A DNA stretch of 64,000 bases, taken from an archaeon. GTDB taxonomy: Archaea; Nanobdellota; Nanobdellia; Pacearchaeales; JAPDKA01. Made by a program: the position numbers and the translations under genes. The notes under the pieces were generated by a model that saw only the letters and a list, made by a program, of their open reading frames with translations, did not search any database and was not told where the DNA came from. Every line of letters starts with the position of its first letter. The stretch's first letter is position 1. Where the stretch lies: contig JAPDKA010000003.1 of NCBI GenBank assembly GCA_029258825.1, positions 66,065 to 130,064 of the forward strand, in the 5' to 3' direction. Positions 1 to 25,521 of the stretch are shown here, piece by piece.

Positions 1-421
1 TCCTAATGCTTATCTTGATGCCGCATGTGTTGCAGACAAAATAAAACGAGAACTAGAAAGGTTTGGCCCATTAAGTTTCAAAATTGTTGCTTATAGAAAT
101 TTAAGACGTATCAAAGAGGCTGGCGCGCTTGGTGGCGAAATAGTGCTAAGCGGAAAGTTGCCAAGTGAAAGAGCAAGAACTTGGCGATTCAGGTTTGGTT
201 ATATCAAAAAGACAGGAAATTATGCTAAATTACTTGTAGATAAAGCAAAAACAGTTGCTCAAACAAAGCCTGGCACGATCGGCATTAAAGTAGCTATAAT
301 GCCTCCAACAGTAAAGCTTCCAGATAAAATAGAAATACCGGAAAAACAAGAGCAAGCACAAGAACCGGCACAAGAACAAACACAGCAACAAATAAACGAA
401 CAAAAAAATCAAACAAAATAA
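1..421 (+). CDS. rps3: 30S ribosomal protein uS3, C-terminal part (5' end lies outside the window)
   Basis: The reading frame is open from base 2 with no upstream start. It carries the GIKVxIM-type motif of the uS3 C-terminal domain and a lysine/glutamine-rich tail. It sits immediately upstream of uL29, as in archaeal operons. Confidence 0.8.
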   Translation, partial: PNAYLDAACVADKIKRELERFGPLSFKIVAYRNLRRIKEAGALGGEIVLSGKLPSERARTWRFRFGYIKKTGNYAKLLVDKAKTVAQTKPGTIGIKVAIMPPTVKLPDKIEIPEKQEQAQEPAQEQTQQQINEQKNQTK

Positions 422-435
422 AATAAAAAATAAAG

Positions 436-687
436 ATGGCTATCCTAAAAGCAAGAGAGATTAGGCAACAAAGCGATGCTGAACTAAGAAAAAAGTTGAA
501 CGAGCTAAAACTAGAACTATTAAGACAGCGCGCACAAAAAAGTCAAGCCCAAGCTAAATTAAAGATTAGAGAAATAAAAAGAACTATTGCAAGAATTAAG
601 ACAATATTGCATGAAAGAAAAATGCAAGAATCAAAAAAGCAAGAAAACAAAAATAAAACTAATGCTCAAACCAAATCAAAAGCCTAA
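436..687 (+). CDS. rpl29: 50S ribosomal protein uL29
   Basis: 83-aa helical protein beginning MAILKAREIRQQSDAELRKKLNELKLELLRQR, the typical uL29 N-terminus. Its position between uS3 and SUI1 matches archaeal operons. Confidence 0.85.
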   Translation: MAILKAREIRQQSDAELRKKLNELKLELLRQRAQKSQAQAKLKIREIKRTIARIKTILHERKMQESKKQENKNKTNAQTKSKA

Positions 688-690
688 ACC

Positions 691-993
691 ATGGAAATTT
701 GTCCAAAGTGCGGATTGCCTAAAGAAGCATGCATTTGTGAAACACTGGCAAAAGAACAGGAAAAAATAGTAGTGAGGAAAGAAAAGCGAAAATTTGGCAA
801 AATAGTGACAGTAGTGAACTTTAACAATAAAATAAACCTTAAAGAGATAGCAAAAGAACTAAAAAAGAAACTCGCGTGTGGCGGCACTGTTAAAGACAAT
901 GAAATAGAATTGCAGGGAGATCACGCAGCGAAAATAAAGGAAAAGCTTGTTGAGCTGGGCTTTAACGCAGAGAACATAGAGATAGTAGAATAG
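691..993 (+). CDS. translation initiation factor aSUI1 (eIF1 homolog)
   Basis: 100-aa protein with an N-terminal CPKCG...C zinc motif followed by a SUI1 fold (KIVTVV...LACGGTVKD). Placement follows the conserved archaeal S3-L29-SUI1-Rpp29-S17 order. Confidence 0.8.
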   Translation: MEICPKCGLPKEACICETLAKEQEKIVVRKEKRKFGKIVTVVNFNNKINLKEIAKELKKKLACGGTVKDNEIELQGDHAAKIKEKLVELGFNAENIEIVE

Positions 994-1033
994 CATAGAT
1001 GAAGCATAAACGCATAAACAAACCAAAGCAAAA

Positions 1034-1312
1034 ATGAACATAAAAATAAAGCCAGAAGACATACTCACAAAAGTAACGTTGATCGGTGACAGCGTTGAGG
1101 TAATTGAAGCAAGCAATAAATTGCTTGTTGGCATTAAAGGCACTGTTATTGATGAGAGCAAAGAAATGTTAATACTTAAAGTTAACAAAGGCATAAAAAA
1201 ACTGCTGAAATCGCAAGTAACGTTGAAAGTGAAAAGCAAGGAATTGGGCAAAACTTATATAGTGGACGGAAAACTTTTAAGAGGAAGAATCGAAAAAAGA
1301 ATAAAAAAATAA
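1034..1312 (+). CDS. rnp1: RNase P protein component 1 (Rpp29/Pop4 homolog)
   Basis: 92-aa Sm-like protein (LIGDSVEVIEASNKLLVGIKGTVIDESKEMLILK). It lies between SUI1 and S17, as in other archaea. Confidence 0.7.
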   Translation: MNIKIKPEDILTKVTLIGDSVEVIEASNKLLVGIKGTVIDESKEMLILKVNKGIKKLLKSQVTLKVKSKELGKTYIVDGKLLRGRIEKRIKK

Positions 1313-1323
1313 AAAACATTAAA

Positions 1324-1698
1324 ATGGCAAAAGAAAGAGCAAAAGAAAAACAAAAAGAAAAAGAAACAAAACAAAAGGAAAACCAAAAGCAGAAAATTTG
1401 CAATGATAAAAACTGCCCTATTCATGGTAGTATAGCTTTAAGAGGTAGAAAGTTTAAAGGCATAGTAACAAGAAAGCACATCAAACAAAAAAAAGTAACC
1501 ATAGAGTTTGAACGTATGGTTTTCATTCGGAAATATGAAAGATTTGCAAAAAAGATAACACGTATTCATGCTCATTTGCCAGATTGCATGCAAGATGAAA
1601 TAGCAGTTGGTGATGTTGTTGAAGTGCATGAAACAAGACCAATAAGCAAGATGATACATTTTGTTGTAACAAGAAAAATAAAATCTAAAGCAAAATGA
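1324..1698 (+). CDS. rps17: 30S ribosomal protein uS17
   Basis: Core matches uS17 (KGIVTRKHIKQKKVTIEFERMVFIRKYERFAKKITRIHAHLP...VGDVVEVHETRPISK). It has a Lys/Glu-rich N-terminal extension. It overlaps the uL14 start by 4 nt. Confidence 0.9.
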   Translation: MAKERAKEKQKEKETKQKENQKQKICNDKNCPIHGSIALRGRKFKGIVTRKHIKQKKVTIEFERMVFIRKYERFAKKITRIHAHLPDCMQDEIAVGDVVEVHETRPISKMIHFVVTRKIKSKAK

Positions 1699-2096
1699 AA
1701 GCTGTAGCAGCACGAATTAACAAAGGGCTACACATAGGCAGCCTTGTGAATGTAGCAGACAATAGCGGCGCAAAACTAGTCAAAATCGTAGCAGTTAAGA
1801 AAGCAAAAAGTGTAAAAGGCAGACAAATCAGCTGTGGCGTTGCAGACCTTGTAAGAGTAAGTGTAAGAAAAGGTAACATAGAATTGAAAAAGCAAACACA
1901 TTGGGCAGTCATAGTCAGGCAGAGACGCCCTTACAGAAGAAAAACAGGCGAGCGTATATGTTTTGAAGACAATGCAGTAGTTTTGCTTAAAGATGAAAAA
2001 GGTAATCCAAAAGGAACACAAATAAAAGGACCTATAGCAAGAGAGGCCGCTGAAAGATGGCCTTTTGTTGCTAAAATAGCAAGCGTTGTTGTTTAA
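1695..2096 (+). CDS. rpl14: 50S ribosomal protein uL14
   Basis: MKAVAARINKGLHIGSLVNVADNSGAKLVKIVAVKK is a classic uL14 signature. Confidence 0.95.
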   Translation: MKAVAARINKGLHIGSLVNVADNSGAKLVKIVAVKKAKSVKGRQISCGVADLVRVSVRKGNIELKKQTHWAVIVRQRRPYRRKTGERICFEDNAVVLLKDEKGNPKGTQIKGPIAREAAERWPFVAKIASVVV

Positions 2097-2097
2097 A

Positions 2098-2520
2098 ATG
2101 GCTGCTAAATGGAGTAAAAGCTGGAAATCAAGCAAACAACCAAGAAAGCAACGCAAATATAGACGGAATGCTCCGCTACATGTAAGGCACAAATTTTTAG
2201 CAGCGAACCTAAGCAAAGAACTAAGAAAGAAATATGGCATTAGAGCATTGCCATTACGCAAAGGCGATACAGTAAAAATTATGCGTGGTAGTTTTAAAGG
2301 TAAGACAGGAAAAATAAGCAGGATAGATTTAAAAAAACTCAAAGTTTATGTTGAAAACATTACAATGCTTAAGCAAGACGGGAGAAAAGTACCGATGCCT
2401 TTAGAACCATCAAACTTACAAATTATAGCGCTGAATCTTGATGATAAAAAACGTCTCAAAGCAATAGAAAGAAAACAGAAAGCAAAAGAAAAAGAAAAAA
2501 GTAAAGCTAAACAGAAATAA
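2098..2520 (+). CDS. rpl24: 50S ribosomal protein uL24
   Basis: KOW motif KGDTVKIMRGSFKGKTGKISRIDLKKLKVYVENI. The start is chosen at MAAKW, just after the uL14 stop. It has a lysine-rich C-terminal tail. Confidence 0.9.
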   Translation: MAAKWSKSWKSSKQPRKQRKYRRNAPLHVRHKFLAANLSKELRKKYGIRALPLRKGDTVKIMRGSFKGKTGKISRIDLKKLKVYVENITMLKQDGRKVPMPLEPSNLQIIALNLDDKKRLKAIERKQKAKEKEKSKAKQK

Positions 2521-2528
2521 TTAGCAAA

Positions 2529-3224
2529 ATGTCAAGACACTTAAAAAGGTTGAGCATGCCGAAAACATGGCCCCTAGCAAGAAAAGGAACTAAATTCATA
2601 ACCAAACCCAGTCCTGGTTCTCATAGTTTAGAATATGGTTTGCCTCTAGTAATAGTATTGAGAGACATACTAAAGCTTGCAACTACAAGCAGAGAAGCAA
2701 AAAAAATTGTTAAGCATAAAACAGTAATCATTGATGGAAGGCAAATAAAAGATGAGAAATTTCCTTTCGGATTGTTTGACAGGATGTACATACCTGAAAT
2801 AGACAAAGCATATACTGTAGTGCTTAATAAAAAAGGAAAGCTACAAATTATCGAGATATCAAAAGACAAGGTTGACTTAAAGCCATTAAAAGTTATAGGC
2901 AAAAGAACTGTAAAGAAAGGACTAGTGCAGATAAACTGCTATGATGGAAAAAATATATTGTTAAAGCCTGATGAAGCTAAAAACATTAAGCCTCATGATT
3001 CTATTGTTTATGATCTAAAAAACAAAAAAATAGTTAAGCATTTGCCATTAAAGCAAAACGCCGATCTTGTTGTTATCAAAGGAAAACACACATGGGAATT
3101 CGGCAAAGTAAAAGAAATAACAAGAAAAGGTAACAAGAGATTTGTAGCAATACAAACTGAAAGGGGAGTGATTGAAACGCCTATCGAGCATGTTTTCGTA
3201 ATAGAAAAAAACTTAATACAATAA
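2529..3224 (+). CDS. rps4e: 30S ribosomal protein eS4
   Basis: N-terminus MSRHLKRLSMPKTWPLARKGTKFITKPSPGSH is diagnostic for S4e. It is 231 aa long. Confidence 0.95.
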   Translation: MSRHLKRLSMPKTWPLARKGTKFITKPSPGSHSLEYGLPLVIVLRDILKLATTSREAKKIVKHKTVIIDGRQIKDEKFPFGLFDRMYIPEIDKAYTVVLNKKGKLQIIEISKDKVDLKPLKVIGKRTVKKGLVQINCYDGKNILLKPDEAKNIKPHDSIVYDLKNKKIVKHLPLKQNADLVVIKGKHTWEFGKVKEITRKGNKRFVAIQTERGVIETPIEHVFVIEKNLIQ

Positions 3225-3225
3225 A

Positions 3226-3723
3226 ATGAATATGCGCGAAGTCAGGTTTGAGAAAGTTGTGCTTCATGCAACAACAGCCGATCAGGCAAAGCTGGAAAAG
3301 TACAAGAAATTGCTAAACGTAATTACAAACAGAAAGCCAGCTGTAACAAAAGCAAAACGCAGAATTGCAGCATTCAAGATTAGGCGGGGGCTCGTTATAG
3401 GTTGTAAAGTTACTGTTAGAGGCAAGCAAGGCGAAGAGCTTGCGAAAAGATTATTGAAAGCAATAGACAACACATTAAGTAAAAAACAGGTTGGGCCTGG
3501 CTTTGTCAGCTTTGGTATTAAAGAATATATTGAGATTCCAGGTGTTGAGTATATGCGTGATGTAGGCATAGTGGGCTTTGATGTTACGATATGCTTAACA
3601 AAACCTGGCAAAAGAGTAAAGCTAAGAAAAATTAAAAAAAGCAAAATAGGAAAAAAACAAACTGTAAGCAAAGAAGAAACAATTGAATTTTTAAAAAATA
3701 AATTTGGAGTAAAATTCAAGTAA
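3226..3723 (+). CDS. rpl5: 50S ribosomal protein uL5
   Basis: uL5 core ([33 protein letters not shown]...). The gene is tightly packed after S4e. Confidence 0.95.
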
Positions 3724-3724
3724 A

Positions 3725-3955
3725 ATGACGGCAAGCGACTGGAGGAAATTGTTAACGCAACTTAAAGCAAAACCGCAACTGCTAAAGAGATTTTTCAAGT
3801 ACAACAAACCGAAAGAAAGAAAATTCGGCGTAGCAGCATTCAAATGTGAAAGATGCGGAAGATTCGGCGCGCATATTCATAAATACGGACTGCATTTATG
3901 CAGGCAGTGTTTCAGAGAAATAGCTGAAAAATTAGGATTTAAAAAATATAATTAA
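3725..3955 (+). CDS. rps14: 30S ribosomal protein uS14 (type Z, zinc-binding)
   Basis: C-terminal [25 protein letters not shown] is the Cys4 zinc-ribbon S14 signature. Confidence 0.95.
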
Positions 3956-3991
3956 ATCGATATAATTAAATAAGCAAAATAAAAAAATAAA

Positions 3992-4378
3992 ATGGTCGTT
4001 AGAGATTGGTTAAGCAATGCATTGAACGATTTTATGAATTGCAAAAAGGTTGGAAAAACAGAGACAGTAATCTGCCCTGTATCCAATCTAATGCTTAGAG
4101 TGTTTGAAATAATGAAACAACACGGCTATCTTGAAGATGTTAAAGTTGAGCAGGACAAGTTCAGAAAAGCAATCGTAAAGCTAGGAAAATTAAACTATTG
4201 TAAAGCAATAAAGCCGCGATTTGTAGTAAAAAAGGACCAGTATGATAAATATATTAGACGTTACTTGCCGGCTAGACAACTTGGTATAATCATTGTTTCA
4301 ACAAATAAAGGTTTAATGACTCATAGAGAGGCAATGGAAAAAGGACTTGGTGGTGTGTTAATTGCTTATTGCTATTAA
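3992..4378 (+). CDS. rps8: 30S ribosomal protein uS8
   Basis: 128 aa. The fold signature (...GIIIVSTNKGLMTHREAMEKGLGGVLIAYCY at the C-terminus) and its position match uS8. Confidence 0.9.
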   Translation: MVVRDWLSNALNDFMNCKKVGKTETVICPVSNLMLRVFEIMKQHGYLEDVKVEQDKFRKAIVKLGKLNYCKAIKPRFVVKKDQYDKYIRRYLPARQLGIIIVSTNKGLMTHREAMEKGLGGVLIAYCY

Positions 4379-4423
4379 ATATAAGCTATTAATGTTAAAC
4401 TTGTAAAGTTAAAAAAAGTTAAA

Positions 4424-4981
4424 ATGAAAAAAGACATAAAAGAAAAGGTAGAATTGCCCCAGGGCATTAATGCAGAAGTAGACGACAATGCCAAGCACGT
4501 TAAAGTTAGTGGCAATGCTGGACAGCTTGAAAAAAGCTTCAAAGTAGTTGATAAAGTGCATTTGAAATTGGAAGGCAATAGCATAGTCATTTATGCTAAC
4601 AAAGCCACAAAAAGAGAAAAGAAAATGATAAAGACAATAAAGGCACACATAAAAAATATGATTAAAGGATTAATGCAACCTTGGGTTTACAAATTGCAAA
4701 TATGTTCTTCGCACTTTCCGATGAGTGTAAGCGTTGATAAGGAAAAAGGTTTAGTTATTATTAAGAACTTTCTTGGAGAAAATAAAGAAAGAACAGCAAA
4801 AATTTTGCCAGGCGTTGATGTTCAAGTTAAAGGCGATATTATTGAAGTCAAAAGTATAGATAAAGAAAAAGCTGGTCAAACTGCAGCAAACATAGAACAG
4901 GCAACAAGAATAACAAAACTTGACAGGCGTATATTCCAAGACGGCATTTGGATTATTGAAAAAGCTGGAAAACCTGTGTAA
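4424..4981 (+). CDS. rpl6: 50S ribosomal protein uL6
   Basis: 185 aa with the two-repeat uL6 architecture (VKVSGNAGQLEKSF...; VQVKGDIIEVKSIDKEKAGQTAANIEQATRI). Confidence 0.9.
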   Translation: MKKDIKEKVELPQGINAEVDDNAKHVKVSGNAGQLEKSFKVVDKVHLKLEGNSIVIYANKATKREKKMIKTIKAHIKNMIKGLMQPWVYKLQICSSHFPMSVSVDKEKGLVIIKNFLGENKERTAKILPGVDVQVKGDIIEVKSIDKEKAGQTAANIEQATRITKLDRRIFQDGIWIIEKAGKPV

Positions 4982-5015
4982 TTGCATAATAAAACAAACA
5001 AAGCAAAAAGAAAAA

Positions 5016-5702
5016 ATGACAAATACGAAAGAAGCAAAAAACGAAATGCAGAAACTGCTTGAAGAAAGAAAACGCATAAAGAAGAGAAAGCCTGACTATG
5101 TTAGACAAGATTCTCATAAAAAATCAAGGCTTGGAAGGGGCAGAAAGAAAAAACAAAAATGGAGAAGGCCAAAAGGCAGACACAGCAAGGTTAGAAAACG
5201 CATAAAAGGACATCTGCCACGCGTCGAAATAGGCTATGGTTCACCAAAAAAAGTTAAAGGCACTATTAATGGTTTAAAACCTGTAATTGTTACCTCACCA
5301 CAAGACATAGAAAAAATAAAACCAGATCAGATAGCATTTGTTGCTTCAACAGTTGGAAAAAAGAAAAAGCTAGAAATTGTTAAGAAAGCTCTCTCACTTA
5401 ATGTTCAGCTTGCAAATGTTGATGCAAGTTTTATTGAGTGTGTTGAAGCTGAAATGAAACAAAGAAAAGAAAAGCGTAAGGCTTATGAAAAAGCAAGAGC
5501 TGAGAAGGAAAAAAGAAAAGAAAAAGCAAAAGTGAAGGAAGAAGAGGTGAAAAAGAAAGAGATGGAAAAAGCAGAAGAAAAAGAAAAGCAAGAAGCAAAA
5601 AAGTTAACTGAGCGCATTGAAGCAGAAGCTGAAATGCATGCAAAAGAAAAATTTGAAAAACCAAAAAAAGTCGAAGCACATAGAAAAGCATTACAAAAAT
5701 AA
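5016..5702 (+). CDS. rpl32e: 50S ribosomal protein eL32, with a long K/E-rich C-terminal extension
   Basis: Core RLGRGRKKKQKWRRPKGRHSKVRKRIKGHLPRVEIGYGSPKKVKG matches eL32. An acidic-basic low-complexity tail of about 90 aa follows. The start is taken at MTNTKEAK, downstream of the uL6 stop. Confidence 0.85.
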   Translation: MTNTKEAKNEMQKLLEERKRIKKRKPDYVRQDSHKKSRLGRGRKKKQKWRRPKGRHSKVRKRIKGHLPRVEIGYGSPKKVKGTINGLKPVIVTSPQDIEKIKPDQIAFVASTVGKKKKLEIVKKALSLNVQLANVDASFIECVEAEMKQRKEKRKAYEKARAEKEKRKEKAKVKEEEVKKKEMEKAEEKEKQEAKKLTERIEAEAEMHAKEKFEKPKKVEAHRKALQK

Positions 5703-5724
5703 AATACTATGATAAGTTCACAAA

Positions 5725-6168
5725 ATGCCTGCCTTTAAAACACAAAAAAGAATCGCAGCGCAACTACTTGGTGTAGGCGTAAACAGGATTTGGCTAGATC
5801 CGAATAGGCTTGACGAGATAAAGCAAGCAATAACAAGAAAAGACATAGAAGAATTAATAAAAGAAAAAGCAATCAAGGCAAAACCTGTACATGGTGTAAA
5901 AAGAAGGGCAGGCAAAAAGCATGATGCAAGACGCAAGAAAGGACGCAAACGTGGGCCTGGTAAAAGAAAAAAAATTGTAAAGCAAAGAAAACGAGAATAT
6001 GTCATGCTTATAAGACGCTTACGAAGTTACCTTCGCGCATTAAAAAATAAAGGCGTGATAACAACAAACCAGTATCAAAAATTAAGGAGACTTGCAAAAG
6101 CTGGAATGTTTCCAAGCAAAAAAAGTGTTGATGAGTATATAAAATTAAAGTTAAAACAAGCTGAATAA
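5725..6168 (+). CDS. rpl19e: 50S ribosomal protein eL19
   Basis: N-terminus MPAFKTQKRIAAQLLGVGVNRIWLDPNRLDEI is diagnostic for L19e. Confidence 0.95.
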   Translation: MPAFKTQKRIAAQLLGVGVNRIWLDPNRLDEIKQAITRKDIEELIKEKAIKAKPVHGVKRRAGKKHDARRKKGRKRGPGKRKKIVKQRKREYVMLIRRLRSYLRALKNKGVITTNQYQKLRRLAKAGMFPSKKSVDEYIKLKLKQAE

Positions 6169-6169
6169 A

Positions 6170-6703
6170 ATGGGAAAATTGTTAGTGGTTAAAAAAAGAA
6201 GACGCAGAGAAGGAAAGACAAACTACAAAAAGCGCTTAGCTTTACTTAAATCAGAAAAGCCTCGGCTAGTTGTAAGAAAAACAAACAAGTATGTGATAGC
6301 TCAACTAGTAATTAGTGAAGAAGCTCAAGATAAAGTTGTTGTTGGTGTAACATCTAAAGTACTGGCAAAGTTCGGCTGGCAAAATAGTTTTAAAAATATT
6401 CCTGCATGCTACTTAACTGGAATAATTATTGGCAAGCTAGGACTAAGTAAAGGCATAAATGAAGCAATAGTTGATATCGGGCTGCATAGAGCAACAAAAG
6501 GCAATAGGCTGTTTGCTGTGGTTAAAGGTTGTATTGATGCTGGCATGCAAATAAAAGCTAATGCTGTATTTCCTGATGCTGAACGCATCAAAGGAAAACA
6601 CATTAATGATGCTGTACAAAGAACATTTGAAGAGATTTATGAAAAACTAAAGCAGGTTGATGATGTTGAAAAAATTATAAAAACAAAATCAAATAAAAAA
6701 TAA
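6170..6703 (+). CDS. rpl18: 50S ribosomal protein uL18
   Basis: KRRRREGKTNYKKRLALLKSEKPRLVVRKTNKYVIAQLV is the uL18 signature. Confidence 0.95.
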   Translation: MGKLLVVKKRRRREGKTNYKKRLALLKSEKPRLVVRKTNKYVIAQLVISEEAQDKVVVGVTSKVLAKFGWQNSFKNIPACYLTGIIIGKLGLSKGINEAIVDIGLHRATKGNRLFAVVKGCIDAGMQIKANAVFPDAERIKGKHINDAVQRTFEEIYEKLKQVDDVEKIIKTKSNKK

Positions 6704-6744
6704 ATAAAATAATAAAAAAATTAAAGAAAAAATCAAAAAACAAA

Positions 6745-7533
6745 ATGACAAAAGGAACGTCAAGGAAAAAGCAAGAACCTGAAGCAGTAAAAAAAGCAAT
6801 GAAAAGAGAAGGTACAGAAATGAAAGTTGAAGAAAAAGCTGAAGAACAAGCAAAGCAAGAAGCAAAACAAGTAAAGCAACAAAGCGAGGAGAAACTTGCA
6901 CAATGGAAACCAAAGACAGAACTAGGCAAGCTCGTTAAGCAAGGAAAAATAACAAATATTGATGAAGTATTCGAGAAAGGCTACAAAATTTTAGAGCCAG
7001 AAATTGTCGATGCTTTATTGCCTAATCTAGAGTATGACCTAATACTAATCGGCCAGGCAAAAGGTAAGTTTGGAGGTGGCAAAAGACGTGCATGGCGTCA
7101 AACACAGAAAAAAACTGCTGAAGGAAACGTACCAAAATTTGCAGCCCTTGCAGTTGTAGGCGATAGAAACGGTCATGTTGGTATAGGCTATGGGAAAGCT
7201 AAAGAAACATTACCAGCAAGAGAAAAAGCAATAAGAAAAGCCAAACTTAACATATTCAAAGTTAATAGAGGTTGTGGCAGCTTTGATTGTATATGCAATG
7301 ATCCACACTCCATTCCAGCTAAAACTGAAGGAAAAGAAGGTAGTGTAAGGATTATACTAATGCCTGCTCCAAGAGGTACCGGATTAGTAATTGAAGATGA
7401 ATGTAAAAAAATCATGAGGCTTGCTGGCATAAAAGACATATACAGTAGAACTTTCGGTAAAACAAGAACGAAATTCAACTTGATTAAGGCTTGCATAAAA
7501 GCACTAAAAAAACTAAACGATCTACACTTATAA
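6745..7533 (+). CDS. rps5: 30S ribosomal protein uS5, with a K/E-rich N-terminal extension
   Basis: uS5 core (VVGDRNGHVGIGYGKAKETLPAREKAIRKAKLNIF...RIILMPAPRGTGLV). It is preceded by a low-complexity extension of about 55 aa. Confidence 0.95.
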   Translation: MTKGTSRKKQEPEAVKKAMKREGTEMKVEEKAEEQAKQEAKQVKQQSEEKLAQWKPKTELGKLVKQGKITNIDEVFEKGYKILEPEIVDALLPNLEYDLILIGQAKGKFGGGKRRAWRQTQKKTAEGNVPKFAALAVVGDRNGHVGIGYGKAKETLPAREKAIRKAKLNIFKVNRGCGSFDCICNDPHSIPAKTEGKEGSVRIILMPAPRGTGLVIEDECKKIMRLAGIKDIYSRTFGKTRTKFNLIKACIKALKKLNDLHL

Positions 7534-9817: not shown

Positions 9818-9833
9818 GATTGTAAACCTAATA

Positions 9834-10196
9834 TCAAGCTAGTTTTTTAATTTTATTTATTGTTACTAAAATTGCTCCCTTACAAGGCTCAGATTCGTTT
9901 TCAGGAATTCGTTTTACTATTTCATACCACTTTCCTTCGGTAATATACTCAGCTGTTCCTCTTAATTCATAACCCACACAGTTCTTTTTTCAATCTTTAT
10001 TCCAAACAGTTAATGCAACATTTGGATTTTGTCGAATATTTTTCGTTGTTTCAACCATATAATTTTGATTTTTAGAAACAACTTTTACAAATGCCACAGC
10101 AATACAGTGAGGGTTTCCATTTTCATCCACAGTTGCAAACGTAGCAATAAAAAATCTTGGATGGGTGAGCGATTGAATATATGCATTTAATAAAGT
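9834..10196 (-). pseudogene. pyridoxamine 5'-phosphate oxidase-like (FMN-binding split-barrel) gene remnant
   Basis: Minus-strand translation gives ...RFFIATFATVDENGNPHCIAVAFVKVVSKNQNYMVETTKNIRQNPNVALTVWNKD*KKNCVGYELRGTAEYITEGKWYEIVKR..., which is PNPOx-like. It has no ATG/GTG/TTG start after the upstream TAG. There is an in-frame TGA at 9990-9992. Confidence 0.55.
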
Positions 10197-10263
10197 CTAA
10201 TGAAATGACGATGAGGAAAATTGAATCTGACTTAGTATCTCTGTAAAACATATTTGAAACCTA

Positions 10264-11412
10264 ATGGTTGAAAAAGGGCGACGAGAGCGAAAGATTTTAA
10301 TAAATAAAGCTTATTTACTATTTATGAGGAAAGTAAGAAAAGTAATTATTGATTGGCCTAAAGGAGAGGTTCGTTATGTGACAGAGAATGGTATGACAAG
10401 AATATCTTATAAGCATAATTATATAGAATTTCTCCCACATAACTACCGAGATGGTAAAGACACAGGTCCACCTATATATGTAAATGCTATTCTGGAAGAT
10501 TATAATGATGAGATATCTGAATATTTAGAAGATTTAGAGAAAGAAGGGAAGATTGATATTGAAAAAGAGTGGTTGGTTTATGAAATAAAAAAAGGGGAAA
10601 CTATTCGTTTTTCTTTTGAGAGATTAGAGATACATCCACTAGAAGGAGGTATAAAAGATTTTATCCAAAAATATACAGGGAGGTCTTCACCGTGGTTGAT
10701 GTACGAAAAAGAAATAGATCTGCTAGCAAAAATTCCTCCTTCGATTATGGAAATTGCTGTAAAAAAGGCTATAGATTTATATGAAGCAGATGAGTGGGAT
10801 ACTTTTAATAAGATGTTATATGCGTACCATGAATCTCAACCAGGTATAGGACCTCTTTCTAAAGAGGAAGAAGAACTACTTGAGAAACATGGAATAAAAG
10901 AGATTGTAGAGAAATTATTTGAACTAATACCTTGGAGCGCGTGCATTGTATGTGGAGAAATTTTATGGGAACTTAAGTATGGAAACAAAAATCGAATAAA
11001 AAGTCCGAAAGATGTCATAGATATAGCCTTGAAAGGTGAAGCTTCAAACTTATATTGCATTATTGGGCCTTGTTTAGGACTTGCCCGATACGAGAGATAC
11101 AAAGAATTAGATCGCCATGTTATTGTAATAGACGTAAGGAAAGATCCTACAGAGAAATACGGGTGGGAAGGGATACACCCTTTAGATCTACAAGAATTGG
11201 GTATCACAAGACTGTTAATTTATAAAAAATTAATGGAACTTGGAGAGGAAGAAATTTATGAAAAAGCAAAACGTATTTTTAGACCAGGAGCTTTACTTTA
11301 TTTTTTAATTGAATATATAAAGTGGAAAGAAAGAGAAAAGAAAGAAAAGAAAGCTCTTCCCCCTTCAAATTTAAAAAAGTTATTGAATTTTTTAGACAAG
11401 GACAGTAATTAA
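10264..11412 (+). CDS. hypothetical protein, 382 aa, Glu/Lys-rich; composition atypical for this window
   Basis: Long ORF with no motif I recognise. Its codon and amino-acid usage (many GGA/GGG, AGA/AGG, Glu-rich) differs from the flanking core genes. Confidence 0.5.
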   Translation: MVEKGRRERKILINKAYLLFMRKVRKVIIDWPKGEVRYVTENGMTRISYKHNYIEFLPHNYRDGKDTGPPIYVNAILEDYNDEISEYLEDLEKEGKIDIEKEWLVYEIKKGETIRFSFERLEIHPLEGGIKDFIQKYTGRSSPWLMYEKEIDLLAKIPPSIMEIAVKKAIDLYEADEWDTFNKMLYAYHESQPGIGPLSKEEEELLEKHGIKEIVEKLFELIPWSACIVCGEILWELKYGNKNRIKSPKDVIDIALKGEASNLYCIIGPCLGLARYERYKELDRHVIVIDVRKDPTEKYGWEGIHPLDLQELGITRLLIYKKLMELGEEEIYEKAKRIFRPGALLYFLIEYIKWKEREKKEKKALPPSNLKKLLNFLDKDSN

Positions 11413-11565
11413 ATTTACATGTTCGAGAAATTTTGTAGGGTACCGGATTATAGATTGGAGCTGAATGATTCTTCACCCAATAACTGTATCTCTCTTGAGC
11501 GAAGCGAGAGCCAGAATGACTTAGGAGTAGAAGTATCTTTAAGAATGCAAACATTGTTTAGCAAG

Positions 11566-16454: not shown

Positions 16455-17702
16455 ATGAGAAATGCATATGAAGTAAAATGTGAGCCAATTTTATGCAGTA
16501 AATGTAAAGGCAAAGGATTATGTGGTATGCCATGTCCAATTCTCGCTAGACTCAAAGCAATTCATAAAACATTGAGCGATGAGGTATATGGCAATAGCCC
16601 TCCAGAAATATTTGTTGGAAGAATAGGCTATCCTTATGTTTATTCTGGCATATTAAGCCCTAATGAAATTGGAGAAACAAGCATATACAGCAGGCCGGAG
16701 TTATGGTTCAAAAATAATGCTGGCATAACTGATATAATTGAATATAGAACAAAACTTGTGTACTGCAGAGCAAAAGTGAATGTAAAAAATAGCTACTGGA
16801 ATAGGCGTATTATTGAGAGCATACAAGAGATTTCAGCCAGCTATAAACCAGTTGCTGTAGAAATCAAGCTAAAGCATAAACCAAAAGTAAAGCTTAGCTT
16901 CGATGCTGTTACGCCTCTCACAACAAACCCTGCAGAATTGCAAAAGTTAAGGATTGATGAAAACCCCAAAATAAAACCAAAAGTTGAAAAGCTTATTAAT
17001 GATGATGTCAAAGCAAGTGAAGCAGTAATACAGTTATACAATGCTAAAATCGAAATCAGCAGTATATATCAAGTGTTATCGGCAGGTTTGCTCGGCGTAA
17101 AACTCCAAAGACGTCTTGTGCCGACAAGGTGGAGTATAACAGCAACAGACGACATAATAAGTAAGTTTTTACTTAACAAAATAAAATATTACGATACTAT
17201 AGATAAGTTCATGGTGTTTCATTCCGATTATCTTGGCAATCATTATGAATTTATTTTGCTGCCATCAGTTTTTAGGTTTGAAGTGTTAGAAGCAAAGATG
17301 CCTGGTAGCGTTTGGAATCCTGGCAAGGAGTTATTTATCATGCAAGACTATGAGGATGTTTTTGGCAGAAAAACGTATGCAGAAAATGTAACAGGTGCAT
17401 ATTATGCTAATAGGCTTGCTGTTGCAGAATACTTAACACGCATAAGAAGGCAAGCTGCATGCCTTGTGCTGCGTGAAGTTCGTCCAGAGTATTTTGCACC
17501 ATGCGGCGTTGGCATTTTGCGAGAAGCGAGCAGGGATGCTTTCACGAGAAAGCCAGAGGTATTTGAAACATTGGAAGAAGCATTAAAGACAGTTGCATCA
17601 AGGTTAAAACTTAACATAAATGTGTTCATTAAAAAAAGTTGGTTACTAAAACAAATAAAACAACAAAAAACATTGTTCGAGTTTGTTAATAAAAATCACT
17701 AA
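16455..17702 (+). CDS. hypothetical protein, possibly NreA-like (archaeal DNA-repair-associated DUF650/DUF651 family)
   Basis: 415 aa with an N-terminal Cys cluster (CEPILCSKCKGKGLCGMPCP) reminiscent of Nre N-termini. The assignment is tentative. Its last 86 bp are duplicated about 2.9 kb downstream. Confidence 0.35.
   Translation: MRNAYEVKCEPILCSKCKGKGLCGMPCPILARLKAIHKTLSDEVYGNSPPEIFVGRIGYPYVYSGILSPNEIGETSIYSRPELWFKNNAGITDIIEYRTKLVYCRAKVNVKNSYWNRRIIESIQEISASYKPVAVEIKLKHKPKVKLSFDAVTPLTTNPAELQKLRIDENPKIKPKVEKLINDDVKASEAVIQLYNAKIEISSIYQVLSAGLLGVKLQRRLVPTRWSITATDDIISKFLLNKIKYYDTIDKFMVFHSDYLGNHYEFILLPSVFRFEVLEAKMPGSVWNPGKELFIMQDYEDVFGRKTYAENVTGAYYANRLAVAEYLTRIRRQAACLVLREVRPEYFAPCGVGILREASRDAFTRKPEVFETLEEALKTVASRLKLNINVFIKKSWLLKQIKQQKTLFEFVNKNH
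17611..17696. repeat. 86-bp direct repeat, copy 1 (attL-like); it forms the 3' end of the upstream CDS
   Basis: Identical to 20530-20615: ttaacataaatgtgttcattaaaaaaagttggttactaaaacaaataaaacaacaaaaaacattgttcgagtttgttaataaaaat. Confidence 0.9.
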
Positions 17703-17738
17703 ATTAAATTAAAACAAAATCAGGCAACTTGCTAAAAA

Positions 17739-18428
17739 TTAAAAAGACTTTTTCTTACTTCTTTTTTTAGGATTCTCGTACATCCCGAAACATTCTAATG
17801 TTCTTCTTGAATTCTTTTTTTCTTTTTTATACTCCATAATACATCTGAAAGGATATATCAAGCTATATGCCGCTACACCAGGCAAATAAATAACTGCAGA
17901 TGGCACTGCATAAAAAATTCTTTCTAACAATCCTGATAGCCCCGCTATCTCCTCTCTCCATTCTCGTATTATTTTTTTAGGATGATATTTTAGACTTTCT
18001 CTTCCCCGACTTTGAACAAAAGTGAAGAAATTGCCTTTACCAATTTCTTCAGCATATTCTATTTCTTCTTGTAACATTATTCGTAATAATAAACCACCAT
18101 CATAACCATATCCCCCCTCAGGAAATTTAGACCTATTCAAATTAGGCATGAAATAGTAAGGAAATTCGCCAGATTTAATCTTTTTTAAATGTCTCCTATA
18201 ATGCATATACTCGTTAGGCAAAGATAAGACAATTCTTATAACTCTCCCAAGGTTCTTACAATTTTTTGCTACTCGATAAAAAGAATCATGTAAAACCATT
18301 CCAAGTGCTTTTACCTCTTCCTTCAAATTTAAAGGAGTATTGTTTATTTTTTCTTCCTGTATATAGCTAGGTTCTCTAAATCTTTTATTAAGTTCTTTCC
18401 CAGTGAGTATTATATTTTCATTTTTCAT
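17739..18428 (-). CDS. hypothetical protein (229 aa), island gene
   Basis: Lies between the direct repeats and has atypical composition. On the minus strand a BRE/TATA (ATAACCGAAAGATTTAAATAC) sits about 25 bp upstream of the ATG, suggesting a leaderless transcript. No recognised domain. Confidence 0.5.
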   Translation of the reverse strand: MKNENIILTGKELNKRFREPSYIQEEKINNTPLNLKEEVKALGMVLHDSFYRVAKNCKNLGRVIRIVLSLPNEYMHYRRHLKKIKSGEFPYYFMPNLNRSKFPEGGYGYDGGLLLRIMLQEEIEYAEEIGKGNFFTFVQSRGRESLKYHPKKIIREWREEIAGLSGLLERIFYAVPSAVIYLPGVAAYSLIYPFRCIMEYKKEKKNSRRTLECFGMYENPKKRSKKKSF

Positions 18429-18685
18429 TTTATATAAAAAGTAATAACTAGTATTTAAATCTTTCGGTTATTTACCATTTAATAGGTATAACACTACTAA
18501 ATATATCACAAAAAACACTTACCTCCAAAAACGCCCCTAACTACGCTCCTTTACCCATTGCTTCACTTTATTTTTCGTAAAAAGTAAAAACCCTTAGCTA
18601 AAAAGATAAAATTATTATAGCCCTCGTATGACAGATTAGAAAGCAGAACAGAATAATTTATAAAGACTACCTATTATTCACTATT

Positions 18686-19957
18686 ATGTTACAACGAAAA
18701 GAAATAAGATATATTGTTAGTCTCTCTGCTATTGAAGATTTTATAAAAGAAATAAACAAAATTGCTAAAGAAGAAGTTTTTTCAACACCATATAATTGGA
18801 CGATATATTTCAACAATTCAGAACATGAAGTTCCATTTGAAGTCTCAATTAAAGGAAGAAAATATAGTAACCAACCATTTCATGGATCTCTTAATCTTGA
18901 CGAGAAATGGATCTTTGAAATTAAAGAAGACTACATAAACAAAAATTGTCGTTTTCGAAGAAAGAAAAGGAAAGTCCTAACTTTAGAAGAAATTTTAAAT
19001 ACACTTTCTGAAATGACTAATATAAAAACAAATCAAATCACTTCTCCATTGAGACCTTACCTACTTGATAGCTACAGAAGAAGACACTTTTTACTTGATG
19101 AAAATATCAGAATAACAATTGATACCGATTTAACTTATTATTTATTTGAGGACACATTTAACGGAAAGCAGATCGGAAATGAAAATTATGCTCGAATCGA
19201 AATCAAAATACGTTCAGAAAAAATTAATTCTACAAAATTTCATAAAATCGATTCGCTATTAAAAGATTTAGAAGCTGAAGAAACAATATCTAAAAAAGAT
19301 ATGGCTTACAATTTATTATCCAACTACTTAAGAAAGAAATCTGGAAGAAAAGTTGCTACTGGCGATGTAGAAATTGAAGCAAAATTATTATTGTCCAGGG
19401 ATGAGCAATATATATTTCATAAAATAAAGAGAGACTTTTATTATGGGTTAATAAAAGGGTTTACACTTTTAGATAATTTTCCTTATACTTTGGAAGGTGG
19501 AAAATTACATAAATACTTAGTGACTTCGAAAGACGAATTCTTTAGAGTGGGTATAAAAGGAAAATCAAAAACAATCATTCAAAAAGAAGGCTTCAAAGTA
19601 GTAGACGATCCTTACGGATTAAAATGTATTATAAAAAGAAAGGAAATCAGAAGACCATTCGATTCAAATATCGATTTATCTAAACTACAATTTAAGACGA
19701 TTTATCGAAAAAGAAAATACTTCTTAGTGGAAAATGAAAAAGATAAAAAAACTTACTGTATTCTAATAGATAGGTGCACCCATGAAGCCTCAGAATTGTT
19801 TCAAATGGAAATTGAAGGTTTATTAGATAGTCCGCTCAAAAACGAGGAAAGAGAGATTATTAGAGATATAGGATATTTGACATGTTGTCTAATCACAAAA
19901 TATCCTGTTCTTAAGCCAACTACTTTAACAAAATTGGAATGGCTAAGAAAAATATAA
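18686..19957 (+). CDS. hypothetical protein with CYTH/triphosphate-tunnel-metalloenzyme-like motifs (possibly tandem CYTH-like domains)
   Basis: Second half starts GDVEIEAKLLLSRDEQY (the ExExK signature of CYTH) and ends FQMEIEGLLD (the C-terminal acidic CYTH motif). The first half has related RIEIKIR/EIRYIV strings. The assignment is tentative. Confidence 0.4.
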   Translation: MLQRKEIRYIVSLSAIEDFIKEINKIAKEEVFSTPYNWTIYFNNSEHEVPFEVSIKGRKYSNQPFHGSLNLDEKWIFEIKEDYINKNCRFRRKKRKVLTLEEILNTLSEMTNIKTNQITSPLRPYLLDSYRRRHFLLDENIRITIDTDLTYYLFEDTFNGKQIGNENYARIEIKIRSEKINSTKFHKIDSLLKDLEAEETISKKDMAYNLLSNYLRKKSGRKVATGDVEIEAKLLLSRDEQYIFHKIKRDFYYGLIKGFTLLDNFPYTLEGGKLHKYLVTSKDEFFRVGIKGKSKTIIQKEGFKVVDDPYGLKCIIKRKEIRRPFDSNIDLSKLQFKTIYRKRKYFLVENEKDKKTYCILIDRCTHEASELFQMEIEGLLDSPLKNEEREIIRDIGYLTCCLITKYPVLKPTTLTKLEWLRKI

Positions 19958-20138
19958 TTTTAGATCTAGTCACATTTAAATCGTTCGATAGTTCCCCCTA
20001 CTAACGCCACAGCAAAATGTTATACTAACAAATTAAAAATCCTAAAAGTAAGATTTAAAAACAACAATAATTTTTATGCTTTTGCGCGCAACTTTTACTG
20101 CACTCACAAACTAAATTAAATTTTCAATTGTTTTTAAA

Positions 20139-20513
20139 ATGAAAGAGGGAAAACTGACGCACTACGATGTTTTGAAAGGTCTAGAAGGAGTAGTTATAGA
20201 ATGTAAAAAAGATATAGGTCTGTGGATATGTAAAGGTAATCCTTTAACTTTTTCGGATATAGATGGAGAAGTAAAAAGATTAAGAAGACTGGGCTGGCAT
20301 ATATTTTATAGTATAGAATTAAATGGAGAGATAGTTCAACCTGGACATTGGTATAATATAGACGATAGATCAAAAGTAAAATACATCGTTACAATCTACA
20401 ATTATAGAAAAACTGGACAAAGAGAACAAATAGCAAGAATTTTATTCGAGAGAAGAGAAAAAGTGTTAGATCTAATCAAAGAACTAAATCAAGAAGAATT
20501 TTACCAAGCTTAA
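20139..20513 (+). CDS. hypothetical protein (124 aa), island gene
   Basis: ORF with island-like composition. No recognised domain. Confidence 0.4.
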   Translation: MKEGKLTHYDVLKGLEGVVIECKKDIGLWICKGNPLTFSDIDGEVKRLRRLGWHIFYSIELNGEIVQPGHWYNIDDRSKVKYIVTIYNYRKTGQREQIARILFERREKVLDLIKELNQEEFYQA

Positions 20514-20529
20514 TTTTTGTTTGTTTTGT

Positions 20530-20615
20530 TTAACATAAATGTGTTCATTAAAAAAAGTTGGTTACTAAAACAAATAAAACAACAAAAAACATTGTTCGAG
20601 TTTGTTAATAAAAAT
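20530..20615. repeat. 86-bp direct repeat, copy 2 (attR-like), intergenic
   Basis: Perfect copy of 17611-17696. In the gene's frame it would read ...FVNKN-stop, against ...FVNKNH-stop at copy 1. Confidence 0.9.
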
Positions 20616-20623
20616 TAAAACGT

Positions 20624-21094
20624 TTAAACTAAATCGACCATATGATCATATTTAATTTCTTCGATAATGGAAGAAACTTCATAATCTTTTATAATTTTGG
20701 AAAATTTTCTTCTTATTTCCGTTAAAATCTCATCAAAATGTTTTAGGTCTTTTGCAACAATATTGATAGTAAAATCCCATTTTCCAGTTGTTTTAGCTAC
20801 ATAAACTACATTTGAATGTGATTTTAAGAAATTTATAAAAGATTTTTCACAAGTTTCACTCATATTTTGCAAAACAAAATTTACGAATGCGTAAACAGGG
20901 AAACCCAAAGCTACAGGGTCCAAAACAGTATGAAAAAATTTTATTATTCCAAATTTTTTCATCCTTTTTATTCTATAAACAACACTATCTCTTTGGATTC
21001 CTGTTTTTCTTTCTATTTCTGCTACACTTGCTCTAGCATTTTTATCAAGTATTTTTAATATTTTTTTATCTTTCAAATCGAGTTTTATTTTCAT
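20624..21094 (-). CDS. Lrp/AsnC family transcriptional regulator
   Basis: N-terminal HTH (LDKKILKILDKNARASVAEIERKTGIQRDSVVYRIKRM) plus a C-terminal RAM/ACT-like domain. Confidence 0.8.
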   Translation of the reverse strand: MKIKLDLKDKKILKILDKNARASVAEIERKTGIQRDSVVYRIKRMKKFGIIKFFHTVLDPVALGFPVYAFVNFVLQNMSETCEKSFINFLKSHSNVVYVAKTTGKWDFTINIVAKDLKHFDEILTEIRRKFSKIIKDYEVSSIIEEIKYDHMVDLV

Positions 21095-21224: not shown

Positions 21225-21611
21225 ATGGGAAGAGAAAATTTGAGGGTATATAATTTTGCTATTTTAACAACAAGAACAAGGGGGAGAGAGGAAGAGAGCT
21301 ATAGATTTATTAGGGCGGAAGAAAGATCTAGAGGAGAATCCATAGACGACTTAATAAATAGAGGTATAGAAGAAATAGAAAGAGGAAATGTGGAAGCTAT
21401 GAACCCAAAGATAGTAGAAGGATGTACAGGGGGAATAATCGTTATTAACGATGTTTCGAGAGACATTTACATTTTTGGAGAAAATCTAACTGAAGAGGTA
21501 ATAGAATACTTAGCGAATTGGACTTTTAGGAGGTACATCAAGGAATTGCATTACAATCTCCATTCCATCTATAAAGGAGAAATTCGCCATCATAAACCTA
21601 CACTAGTATAG
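21225..21611 (+). CDS. hypothetical protein (128 aa)
   Basis: ORF with Arg/Glu-rich, atypical composition. It is divergent from the Lrp gene. Confidence 0.35.
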   Translation: MGRENLRVYNFAILTTRTRGREEESYRFIRAEERSRGESIDDLINRGIEEIERGNVEAMNPKIVEGCTGGIIVINDVSRDIYIFGENLTEEVIEYLANWTFRRYIKELHYNLHSIYKGEIRHHKPTLV

Positions 21612-21662: not shown

Positions 21663-22304
21663 TTATTTCAAACCTAGTAAACGGTTAAGCATGATTACTT
21701 TTCTTCTGTATTTTATCCGCAAATAAAAACCAAACAACAATCCTGCAATCAAACCGCCGAGATGTGCTGTATTACCAATAGGCAAACCTGCTGCAGCTGA
21801 AGCAAGCCACAACACACTTAAAGCAATTATTGAAGCGATCCACATTGGCAATGGAAAAGGAAAAGGCATTATGTAAACCTTAAGTTTTGGTGTGAGTACA
21901 GCAATACAACCAGCCAAACCAAAAATTGCACCGCTTGCACCAACAGCAAGAGCATTCATGTCACGTTGAAATACAAATGCAAGCAATACAAACAAAAGAG
22001 AAGCAGAAATGCCACTAATAAAGTACAGCCACAAAAATCTCTTTTTGCCAATAATTTGTTCTAAAAAAGAACCGAGAAAAAACAAACTCATCATGTTAAT
22101 AAACAAATGAAAAAAACCTGCATGCATAAACATACTAGTAACGATCGTCCACAAATATTTTCCATTTATAATGTTTATCGGTTTTATCGCAATAAACTCA
22201 ACAAAATTTCCTGTTAGAAGTAACGGAAACATTGCAGCGAATAAGACACTATTTACAATAATTAACCACAGTGTTGCACTTAATTTGTGCTTGTATGATC
22301 GCAT
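21663..22304 (-). CDS. rhomboid family intramembrane serine protease
   Basis: Catalytic-Ser motif GASGAIFGLAGC and catalytic-His motif NTAHLGGLIAGLLFG, with 6 TM helices. Confidence 0.8.
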   Translation of the reverse strand: MRSYKHKLSATLWLIIVNSVLFAAMFPLLLTGNFVEFIAIKPINIINGKYLWTIVTSMFMHAGFFHLFINMMSLFFLGSFLEQIIGKKRFLWLYFISGISASLLFVLLAFVFQRDMNALAVGASGAIFGLAGCIAVLTPKLKVYIMPFPFPLPMWIASIIALSVLWLASAAAGLPIGNTAHLGGLIAGLLFGFYLRIKYRRKVIMLNRLLGLK

Positions 22305-24459: not shown

Positions 24460-25521
24460 TTATTTTTCTGTTTTTTGCACGTCAATATTAAGCCAAGGAT
24501 AAAACATAAACCTCCAGTCTTGCCGCATTAAACAAATAGTATCTGCAAAACACTTTATTGCTTTCACATATGCTTTTTGCTTGTTGTAAGCATACAGTGC
24601 TGAATCAACAGAGTGATTAAAGTTATAAAGCGAAAGATAGCAAGCAACCATTCCAATAGCGTCATGCAAGCTAAAAATATCAAGACCATCGCTATTAACA
24701 TCGCAAAGATCAAGTAAACCTGAATTATAAAGCATTAAAATCGTGCTCGGCAGAAACTGAGCAGGGGTTATTGCACCAGCAAAACTGCAGTTGCAAAAAG
24801 GATTGTTAATTATGCCTTGTTCAAACAAGTTAAACAATGCATCCAGTTGTTTTATTGCAAATTGCTGCTTTCCAGCAAGATATAGCGTGACTAATGTATT
24901 AAACAATTTTTGCTTTCCGCAGTAATTGCCAAAGCATGATTCTAAAGCGAGAATTGCTGTTATAATCTCGATAGGTTTATGTTGCATATCTAATGAAAAT
25001 AAATTCACAGCATTAATTAAATCTTTCTCATAAGTGTTGATAAAATTTAATGCTTTGTTAAACATTTTTGGCGTATAAAAACCGAGCTCTGGTTTTAAGT
25101 AATAATCTTCGCTAATTTTATCGATTTTGTTGTAATGCTTCAATGTTTCTCTTAATTTTGCCACATCATAAATTTGAAAGTCATCGCTTGCAAACAATTT
25201 TTCTGCTAACCCTCCATAACGCGATGTCAAATAAAGCTTTAACTTAGCAAGATCATCAAGCTGTTTTCTTTGATGTTTACAGCCTTGAGCAACTTGTTCT
25301 AGTTTACGCTGGGTAATTTGAGCAGTTTGTTCAGTTACTTGTTGCTCAATCTGACATTGAGCTCGACTTGCTCTGCATTGGTTTTCATAATGGCAAGGAA
25401 AAAGAAAAGGCAAGATAAGTGCAAAATTTAAAGCATTAAACCGTGTCATGCTGTAATTAAAGCAAAGAAATATAAAAAGGTTATTGAAAAATAAAGGAGT
25501 TAACAAATTATAGACATTCAC
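24460..25521 (-). CDS. family-3 (MltB/SLT_2-like) lytic transglycosylase-like protein with an N-terminal hydrophobic segment
   Basis: ILALESCFGNYCG matches the catalytic-Glu ES motif. AGAITPAQFLPSTILMLYNSG matches the GA.GpaQFmPsT motif of MltB-type lytic transglycosylases. The N-terminal hydrophobic segment could be a signal peptide or anchor. Confidence 0.6.
   Translation of the reverse strand: MNVYNLLTPLFFNNLFIFLCFNYSMTRFNALNFALILPFLFPCHYENQCRASRAQCQIEQQVTEQTAQITQRKLEQVAQGCKHQRKQLDDLAKLKLYLTSRYGGLAEKLFASDDFQIYDVAKLRETLKHYNKIDKISEDYYLKPELGFYTPKMFNKALNFINTYEKDLINAVNLFSLDMQHKPIEIITAILALESCFGNYCGKQKLFNTLVTLYLAGKQQFAIKQLDALFNLFEQGIINNPFCNCSFAGAITPAQFLPSTILMLYNSGLLDLCDVNSDGLDIFSLHDAIGMVACYLSLYNFNHSVDSALYAYNKQKAYVKAIKCFADTICLMRQDWRFMFYPWLNIDVQKTEK

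Follow-up and report, generated by a model that had tools for sequence, protein, structure and literature searches.

In the genome of a Pacearchaeota-like archaeon of the DPANN group we found an island of three genes that is bounded by two identical 86-bp direct repeats, one of which forms the 3' end of nreA, a gene for DNA repair. The repeats, their relation to nreA, the gene content of the island and the absence of recombinase domains from it are direct observations. The structure was probably made by a single crossover between the chromosome and a circular DNA. More tentatively, this crossover can be attributed to an integrase that was encoded elsewhere or has since been deleted, which would have left behind an island similar to the cis-mobilizable elements (CIMEs) of bacteria. 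The island lies in a 64-kb stretch (the window) of a 326,575-bp NCBI contig, and all positions given here are window coordinates. As judged by sequence comparison, the host belongs to a sparsely sampled lineage: the best matches of its NreA protein other than itself are 55-60% identical and come from metagenome-assembled genomes (MAGs) of Pacearchaeota, Woesearchaeota and Nanoarchaeota.

The two copies of the repeat match perfectly over 86 nt and are 2919 nt apart (Table 1). No further copy was found in the window at up to three mismatches, and 100 dinucleotide-preserving shuffles gave no match. In a repeat scan of the whole window the 86-mer was the sole long exact dispersed repeat; the only other repeat family of comparable size is a 30-nt tandem array within one gene. 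The possibility raised in the original prediction, that the 86-mer is a dispersed multi-copy repeat, does not hold within the window, where it occurs twice only. Nor did sensitive DNA and protein searches of the window detect a decayed third copy, i. e. a trace of tandem accretion beyond the genes for the Lrp regulator and the 128-aa protein that follow the island. The edges of the identity are abrupt on both sides (C versus T at position -1 and again C versus T at position +1).

The 415-aa gene to which copy 1 belongs is nreA. Its product matches the Pfam families Nre_N (E 5e-89) and Nre_C (E 1e-34), the latter up to residue 410. Copy 1 extends from the second base of codon 386 through codon 414, and the last 29 codons of nreA overlap with it. 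The part of NreA that is encoded by the repeat holds conserved positions (F391, S395 and Q404 in an alignment with 27 homologues). By this comparison, copy 1 is the genuine end of nreA that encodes its C-terminus. The island side contributes codon 415 (His) and the stop codon: copy 1 is followed by CAC TAA, copy 2 directly by TAA, which gives ...FVNKNH-stop and ...FVNKN-stop, respectively. At its right edge, the identity ends with the last sense codon of nreA, and 5 nt separate the TAA after copy 2 from the stop of the convergent Lrp gene. From the sequence, such an edge fits an element that restores its target gene as well as a donor whose similarity ends with the gene. In all these points the layout agrees with the original prediction, which had described the two identical copies at these positions, copy 1 as the last 29 codons of a 415-aa gene with a near-identical end after copy 2, three island genes of 229, 423 and 124 aa, and the Lrp gene and one further gene just outside the repeats.

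Table 1. Features of the nreA locus in window coordinates
Feature	Positions	Strand	Description	Basis
nreA	16455..17702	+	415 aa, Nre_N and Nre_C; DNA-repair gene, target gene	Pfam, NCBIfam NreA, homologue alignment
Direct repeat, copy 1	17611..17696	+	attL-like, 86 nt, within nreA	
Island interior	17697..20529	.	2833 bp with GC 0.291; three genes, each with a promoter-like upstream region	
229-aa ORFan	17739..18428	-	one hydrophobic stretch near residue 174	no family match
VTC423 gene	18686..19957	+	423 aa, two triphosphate-tunnel (TTM) domains	Pfam VTC, homologues, AlphaFold2, Foldseek
124-aa ORFan	20139..20513	+		no family match at E <=0.01
Direct repeat, copy 2, and following TAA	20530..20618	+	attR-like repeat (20530-20615); orphan nreA 3' fragment	
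Lrp/AsnC-family regulator	20624..21094	-	just outside the repeats	Pfam, synteny
128-aa ORFan	21225..21611	+	outside the repeats, lineage-specific	
Rhomboid protease gene	21663..22304	-	conserved right-hand anchor of the nreA-rhomboid-TFE block	Pfam, synteny

This anatomy is the one expected of a site-specific integrative element, in which direct repeats flank the inserted DNA and one of them completes the 3' end of a target gene that stays intact. A single reciprocal crossover of the Campbell type, in which the chromosomal nreA recombined with a circle carrying the last 86 coding bases of nreA, probably gave rise to it. Such a crossover would place the 86-mer on both sides of the 2.83-kb segment. 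The left copy would keep nreA whole, with the extra His codon and the stop supplied by the inserted DNA, and the right copy would be the displaced original end of nreA, with the original stop still 5 nt from that of Lrp. If the crossover was catalysed by a site-specific integrase, the island would now be a cis-mobilizable, integrase-less remnant. Its cargo would consist of a putative double triphosphate-tunnel enzyme of the VTC/CYTH type (the 423-aa protein, here called VTC423) and two proteins without relatives (ORFans), each gene with a promoter-like upstream region. Copy 2 stops exactly where the sense codons of nreA do, with a stop codon next to it. The empty site would therefore be a compact, intact convergent nreA/Lrp pair with the end ...FVNKN-stop, predicted to read GCATCAAGGTTAAAAC, the 86-mer and TAAAACGTTTAAACTAAATCGACC. 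The predicted junction of the circle is CCAAGCTTAATTTTTGTTTGTTTTGT, the 86-mer and CACTAAATTAAATTAAAACAAAATCAGG. From this anatomy we infer the circle as an intermediate, the enzyme and whatever mobility exists today; the exact junction sequences can serve for detecting excision in reads.

The original prediction had spoken of site-specific integration. What stands of this is the attL/attR-like anatomy at the end of nreA; a mobile-element gene is not found in the island, in which, as had also been predicted, no integrase or transposase is recognizable. An element-encoded integrase would have to be one of the three open reading frames (ORFs) that fill the island with intergenic spaces of only 257 and 181 bp, and none of these matches a recombinase family. 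With two att-like repeats retained and neither integration nor transfer genes inside, the island corresponds to the definition of a CIME (PMC5704250).

A number of results weigh against an integrase-mediated insertion. Among the island genes there was no match to integrase, transposase, replication or virion families in Pfam, PHROGs, PADLOC and NCBIfam, and the genes annotated in the scanned part of the window (6960-64000, with positions 1-6959 outside the scan) gave no match to any of these four kinds of family either. IMG/VR contained neither a relative of VTC423 nor the repeat (searched as 44-mers), and tblastn with each of the three island proteins found no match in GenBank phages. No flanking repeats were seen at seven other loci of the VTC423 family. 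In 146 related nreA loci for which downstream sequence is present no duplicated nreA end was found; therefore the nreA 3' end is no recurrent att site. The repeat is also long, as its 86 bp exceed the range of 29-69 bp reported for crenarchaeal att sites (PMC6563490). Finally, the compositional shift of the island described below is mild, and three independently promoted, unrelated genes look more like the ordinary content of a variable region than like a streamlined element.

Other types of mobile DNA were considered as well. Direct repeats flanking a segment could also result from the insertion of a transposon, a casposon or an integron cassette, in which case one would have to regard the 86-mer as an attC site or a target-site duplication. 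With regard to a transposon or casposon, the duplication of 86 nt is far longer than known target-site duplications, which reach about 15 bp; terminal inverted repeats above background are lacking, and neither a transposase nor Cas1 was found. The best inverted pair near the island ends (26 nt, 77%) is one of 51 such pairs in 8 kb. An integron cassette can be rejected because there is no IntI integrase and no hairpin: the repeat with its flanks folds no better than shuffled sequences on either strand (z-scores of -0.3 to +1.4). Taken together, an insertion of this type is hardly credible. An integrase split by the insertion, as in SSV-type viruses, was rejected, too. The two terminal ORFs (229 aa on the minus strand and 124 aa on the plus strand) show no integrase match, and both end at the repeats rather than starting there or continuing through them. 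The scans with PHROGs and PADLOC gave matches at noise level only. The only two tRNAs found with Rfam in the window are both far from the island.

Exact look-ups with the NreA, Lrp and rhomboid proteins returned the species from only two samples, and the site is occupied by the island in both. Consequently, the search for an empty site proposed in the original prediction was unsuccessful: at the species level none was found by exact look-ups of the flanking proteins, and the nearest other NreA is only 60% identical. The second assembly (ENA ERZ25515926, NODE_10, 67,950 bp; L001), which stems from a different sample, contains the same island with both repeats. It is 99.93% identical to the window over 18.4 kb, with 12 single-nucleotide polymorphisms (SNPs) and two indels. 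Eight of the 12 SNPs fall into 424 bp of nreA (16544-16967), and the remaining ~18 kb contain four, two of them in the Lrp gene. The island itself is identical in both strains; at the SNP density of the two strains, the lack of SNPs in 2.8 kb is not significant. The SNPs in nreA cause at least three amino-acid changes (KVKLSFDAVTPL versus KVKFNFDAVMPL). In its distribution, the cluster of eight resembles a recombination tract or a segment that diversifies locally.

The agreement of the two assemblies in the integrated order supports the single crossover. It also bears on the question whether the island is integrated at all. In principle, a free circle of 2.9 kb (the 86-mer plus 2833 bp) could exist beside an empty chromosomal site, and the assemblers could have threaded it through the shared 86-mer, as for k below 86 the assembly graph is identical for both situations. 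The Logan unitigs of SRR22064148 (k=31) are compatible with this. They end 30 nt within the repeat, where L002 begins at 17667 and L012 terminates at 20586. Such breaks are the expected branching node of a k=31 graph. However, the integrated order is found in both assemblies, which stem from two samples, a repeat of 86 bp is within the span of ordinary reads and could have been resolved by the assemblers, and the segment carries no replication gene. We regard a free circle as highly improbable. Even then, the core finding would hold, as an attP-like copy of the nreA end would be part of the circle. The right end of L002 at 20531 instead of the expected 20559 was considered as a variant junction. 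It was given no weight, because breaks occur in the Logan contigs of SRR22064148 also at places without a detected long repeat (L012, 1096 bp; L175, 901 bp).

For the comparison with relatives, profile searches of genome contigs yielded 160 nreA loci, in all of which NreA is at most 58% identical; a search of genome contigs with the single NreA protein gave no match. The relatives share a conserved block that consists of orf63 (a small ORF), nreA, rhomboid and TFE (both on the minus strand) and a 169-aa gene. Synteny of rhomboid with nreA was seen in 89 loci. In the 79 loci with conserved orientation the gap between nreA and rhomboid has a median of 880 bp and lies between -13 and 7121 bp, and 45 of these gaps hold a SpoIIM-like gene. 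The larger ones contain metabolic genes and no recombinases. In the window the gap measures 3960 bp and comprises the island, the Lrp gene and the 128-aa ORFan. Neither VTC423 nor the 229-aa or 124-aa gene occurs in any of the 79 gaps, and VTC423 is not found beside nreA in any of the 160 loci. In the distant relatives rhomboid thus follows nreA without the three island genes, which marks these as lineage-specific content and does not amount to a precise empty site.

The same holds for what lies just outside the repeats. No Lrp gene adjoins nreA in the 160 loci, the single tblastn match being located ~9.4 kb upstream of nreA (L070), and the 128-aa gene is not found near nreA in any of them. 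Because the Lrp gene and the 128-aa ORFan are not next to nreA in relatives and SpoIIM is absent from the window, the whole nreA-rhomboid interval is, by this comparison, lineage-specific, with the repeat-bounded part as its most recent layer. A different kind of repeat was seen in one Woesearchaeota MAG (L052:1418-1455), where a 38-nt direct repeat with 95% identity follows immediately after the nreA stop and has its second copy ~740 bp downstream. This intergenic repeat is the only other notable one at any of the 146 loci.

Alternatively, the crossover may have been made by the homologous recombination system of the host (RadA). In this case a fragment of a sibling strain, in which nreA was followed by the three genes, would have circularised and recombined once across the shared 86 bp, and two alternative downstream versions would now be stacked without the participation of a mobile element. 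This would account for the absence of integrase and mobile-element genes and for the identity ending at the coding end of nreA, where homologous genes diverge. It would also fit that relatives differ in the region 3' of nreA and carry ordinary accessory genes there, and that the SNPs between the two strains are distributed in a tract-like manner, with eight in 424 bp of nreA. Yet a relative with VTC423 next to nreA was not found among the 160 loci, and both an unobserved donor strain and a circularisation step are required. Moreover, judged by archaeal pop-in genetics, a stretch of 86 bp is short for homologous recombination to act on. On balance, we consider homologous recombination somewhat unlikely, and prefer the crossover by an integrase.

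The island was originally described as foreign-looking on account of its codon and amino-acid usage. This could be confirmed only in part. With a GC content of 0.291 it is the lowest 2.8-kb stretch of the window (mean 0.331, standard deviation 0.02), and the codons AGA, GGA and TTA are modestly enriched in its genes. Its tetranucleotide distance is among the top ~6% of the window. In contrast, the codon-usage distances of the island genes are ordinary for genes of their length and do not make them outliers. The genes at 25.8-30.4 kb have an even lower GC content at third codon positions. The foreign look is therefore weakly supported, as the GC shift amounts to ~2 standard deviations and the codon usage is no outlier. 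The tetranucleotide deviation of the island is equalled by that of another region (58192-63375), which encodes a 1727-aa protein with right-handed beta-helix/NosD repeats, probably a surface protein.

A local rearrangement has to be discussed as well, in which the genes were already located 3' of nreA and no foreign DNA was involved. The second 86-mer would then have been created by unequal crossing-over, by a tandem duplication followed by a deletion, or by a one-sided homologous event combined with an illegitimate join. The lack of mobile-element genes, a codon usage that is not clearly foreign and the identity of the strains across the island are all in line with this. But at least two precise events would be needed, the exact coincidence of the end of the duplicated piece with the last sense codon of nreA would remain unexplained, and no other trace of duplicated island sequence exists. 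A local rearrangement is for these reasons improbable, and the single crossover with a circle remains our preferred explanation.

The 423-aa protein is the only member of the cargo that can be assigned to a family. Its classification as a CYTH/TTM-like protein in the original prediction is borne out by several lines of analysis. The N-terminal half is VTC-like and the C-terminal half CYTH-like. Pfam VTC matches above the Pfam cut-off (E 2.7e-9), and the ExExK motif (E229, E231, K233) in the C-terminal half is invariant among the homologues. The AlphaFold2 model is confident (predicted local distance difference test score, pLDDT, of 94) and has two beta-rich halves. With this model, the top match of Foldseek in the PDB is the tunnel domain of the polyphosphate polymerase Vtc4 (E 5e-11), followed by YgiF and by cyclases and triphosphatases of the CYTH type. 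Predicted tunnel fold and motif together identify VTC423 as a member of the triphosphate tunnel metalloenzymes. A TATA-like sequence, TTTATAAA, is located ~25 nt upstream of the ATG of the gene.

In total, 66 homologues of VTC423 were found, the full-length members of which have 412-479 aa. The family is confined to metagenomic genomes of the DPANN and candidate phyla radiation (CPR) type. NCBIfam has no model for it, and it appears to be uncharacterised. In the loci that were examined (L003-L009, L176) the homologues are surrounded by housekeeping genes in neighbourhoods that are different every time; they never adjoin nreA and never occur together with the two ORFans. On one of the contigs (L009) a VTC423 gene is accompanied by genes for sigma-70, peptide deformylase and a formyltransferase, which marks the source as a CPR-like bacterium. 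The idea that VTC423 forms a cassette elsewhere was discarded in view of the seven other loci, at which the gene stands at ordinary chromosomal places without flanking repeats.

The two remaining proteins of the island have no assignable relatives. Among 5.8 billion proteins the 229-aa protein matched only itself, and it has no match in the four family libraries; its single-sequence AlphaFold2 model is unusable (pLDDT 41). The 124-aa protein found only itself and one short repeat-like match (E 2e-5) in a full HMMER search of 1.84 billion representatives. In the four libraries it has no match at E <=0.01, the best ones being Nop5_N in Pfam (E 0.028) and phrog_18494 (E 0.015). The window ORFans (229, 124, 128, 382 and 494 aa) are not paralogous to each other. 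The 124-aa ORF is in frame with the orphan nreA fragment in copy 2, with five sense codons and a TAA stop in between. This shared frame is probably a coincidence, for which the chance is one in three. As seen from the sequences, the two ORFans and the scattered VTC423 family fit transferable accessory DNA. One could go further and assume that one of the two ORFans is an undescribed recombinase and the island a new minimal integrative element, or that DPANN archaea possess recombinase-free cassettes that carry the last ~90 coding bases of a host gene and are moved by homologous recombination. We consider these possibilities quite improbable.

The comparison of the strains and the annotation of the window yielded some further observations. 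Directly after the secY stop, 1745 bp (9818-11562) containing a 382-aa ORFan (10264-11412, no Pfam or NCBIfam match) are replaced by 19 bp in the second assembly, and no flanking direct repeat is visible at the borders. A second strain-variable segment (42133-43753) encodes a 494-aa protein of ~38 tandem units of 10 residues (...SKNSGQALWY...), which corresponds to a 30-nt period of the DNA; no other long ORF of the window deviates as strongly in codon usage. At this position the other strain (L010) carries 651 bp in which a DUF2283 gene and a gene for 76 aa are located, and a Logan contig (L011) ends exactly at 42132. A gene on the minus strand (24460-25521) of this archaeal genome encodes a lytic transglycosylase domain (PF13406, SLT_2), and its product may act on bacterial peptidoglycan.

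If the proposed origin is real, the island is a clean and very recent scar of gene gain in an ultra-small DPANN archaeon, i. e. in a group of which the mobile DNA has hardly been explored. It would also show that accessory genes can be added beside a conserved gene block without disrupting it. As such it is probably a modest, ordinary case, and its value lies mainly in being a documented example and in pointing to the double-tunnel VTC/CYTH family of DPANN archaea and a CPR-like bacterium.

Several known systems share features with the island or its cargo. VTC423 resembles the triphosphate tunnel metalloenzymes of the Vtc4 and CYTH type in its predicted tunnel fold, the Pfam VTC match and the ExExK motif; unlike these, it combines two tunnel domains in one chain and has no SPX or membrane domain. 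With respect to the site, a parallel is found at icd of E. coli, where phage 21 and e14 are prophages that carry a substitute 3' gene end and have their own integrases. Here, too, inserted DNA supplies a near-identical 3' end and leaves an orphan fragment of the gene end on the far side, whereas our island contains no integrase. The genomic islands of Prochlorococcus are flanked by repeats of tRNA 3' ends and are often devoid of an integrase; they exceed our island greatly in size and are found again at the same sites in different strains. A small genome, a variable island, a repeat of a gene 3' end and the lack of a recombinase inside are common to both, but the target is a protein gene and not a tRNA in our case.

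Integration into the 3'-distal parts of protein genes with att direct repeats is established for archaea, as 14 of 68 thaumarchaeal elements are of this kind; their att sites have a median of 17 bp (PMC6563490). Like these elements of the tyrosine-recombinase type, the repeats described here flank accessory DNA, and one of them is the end of a host gene that stays intact. In contrast to them, the island has no integrase, replication or virion genes and a size of only 2.8 kb, and its 86-bp repeat is longer than the thaumarchaeal median and the crenarchaeal range. The CIMEs, a defined class of decayed elements that have kept attL and attR and lost the integration and transfer genes, are bacterial and lie next to, or derive from, an identifiable integrative and conjugative or integrative and mobilizable element which supplies the integrase (PMC5704250), whereas our island resides in a DPANN archaeon and has no known cognate element or integrase. 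The streptococcal CIMEs nevertheless share with it the att-like repeats where the target gene ends and an interior devoid of integration and transfer genes (PMC5704250). We would class the island as a small insertion without an integrase, of a known general kind, in an under-studied archaeal lineage.

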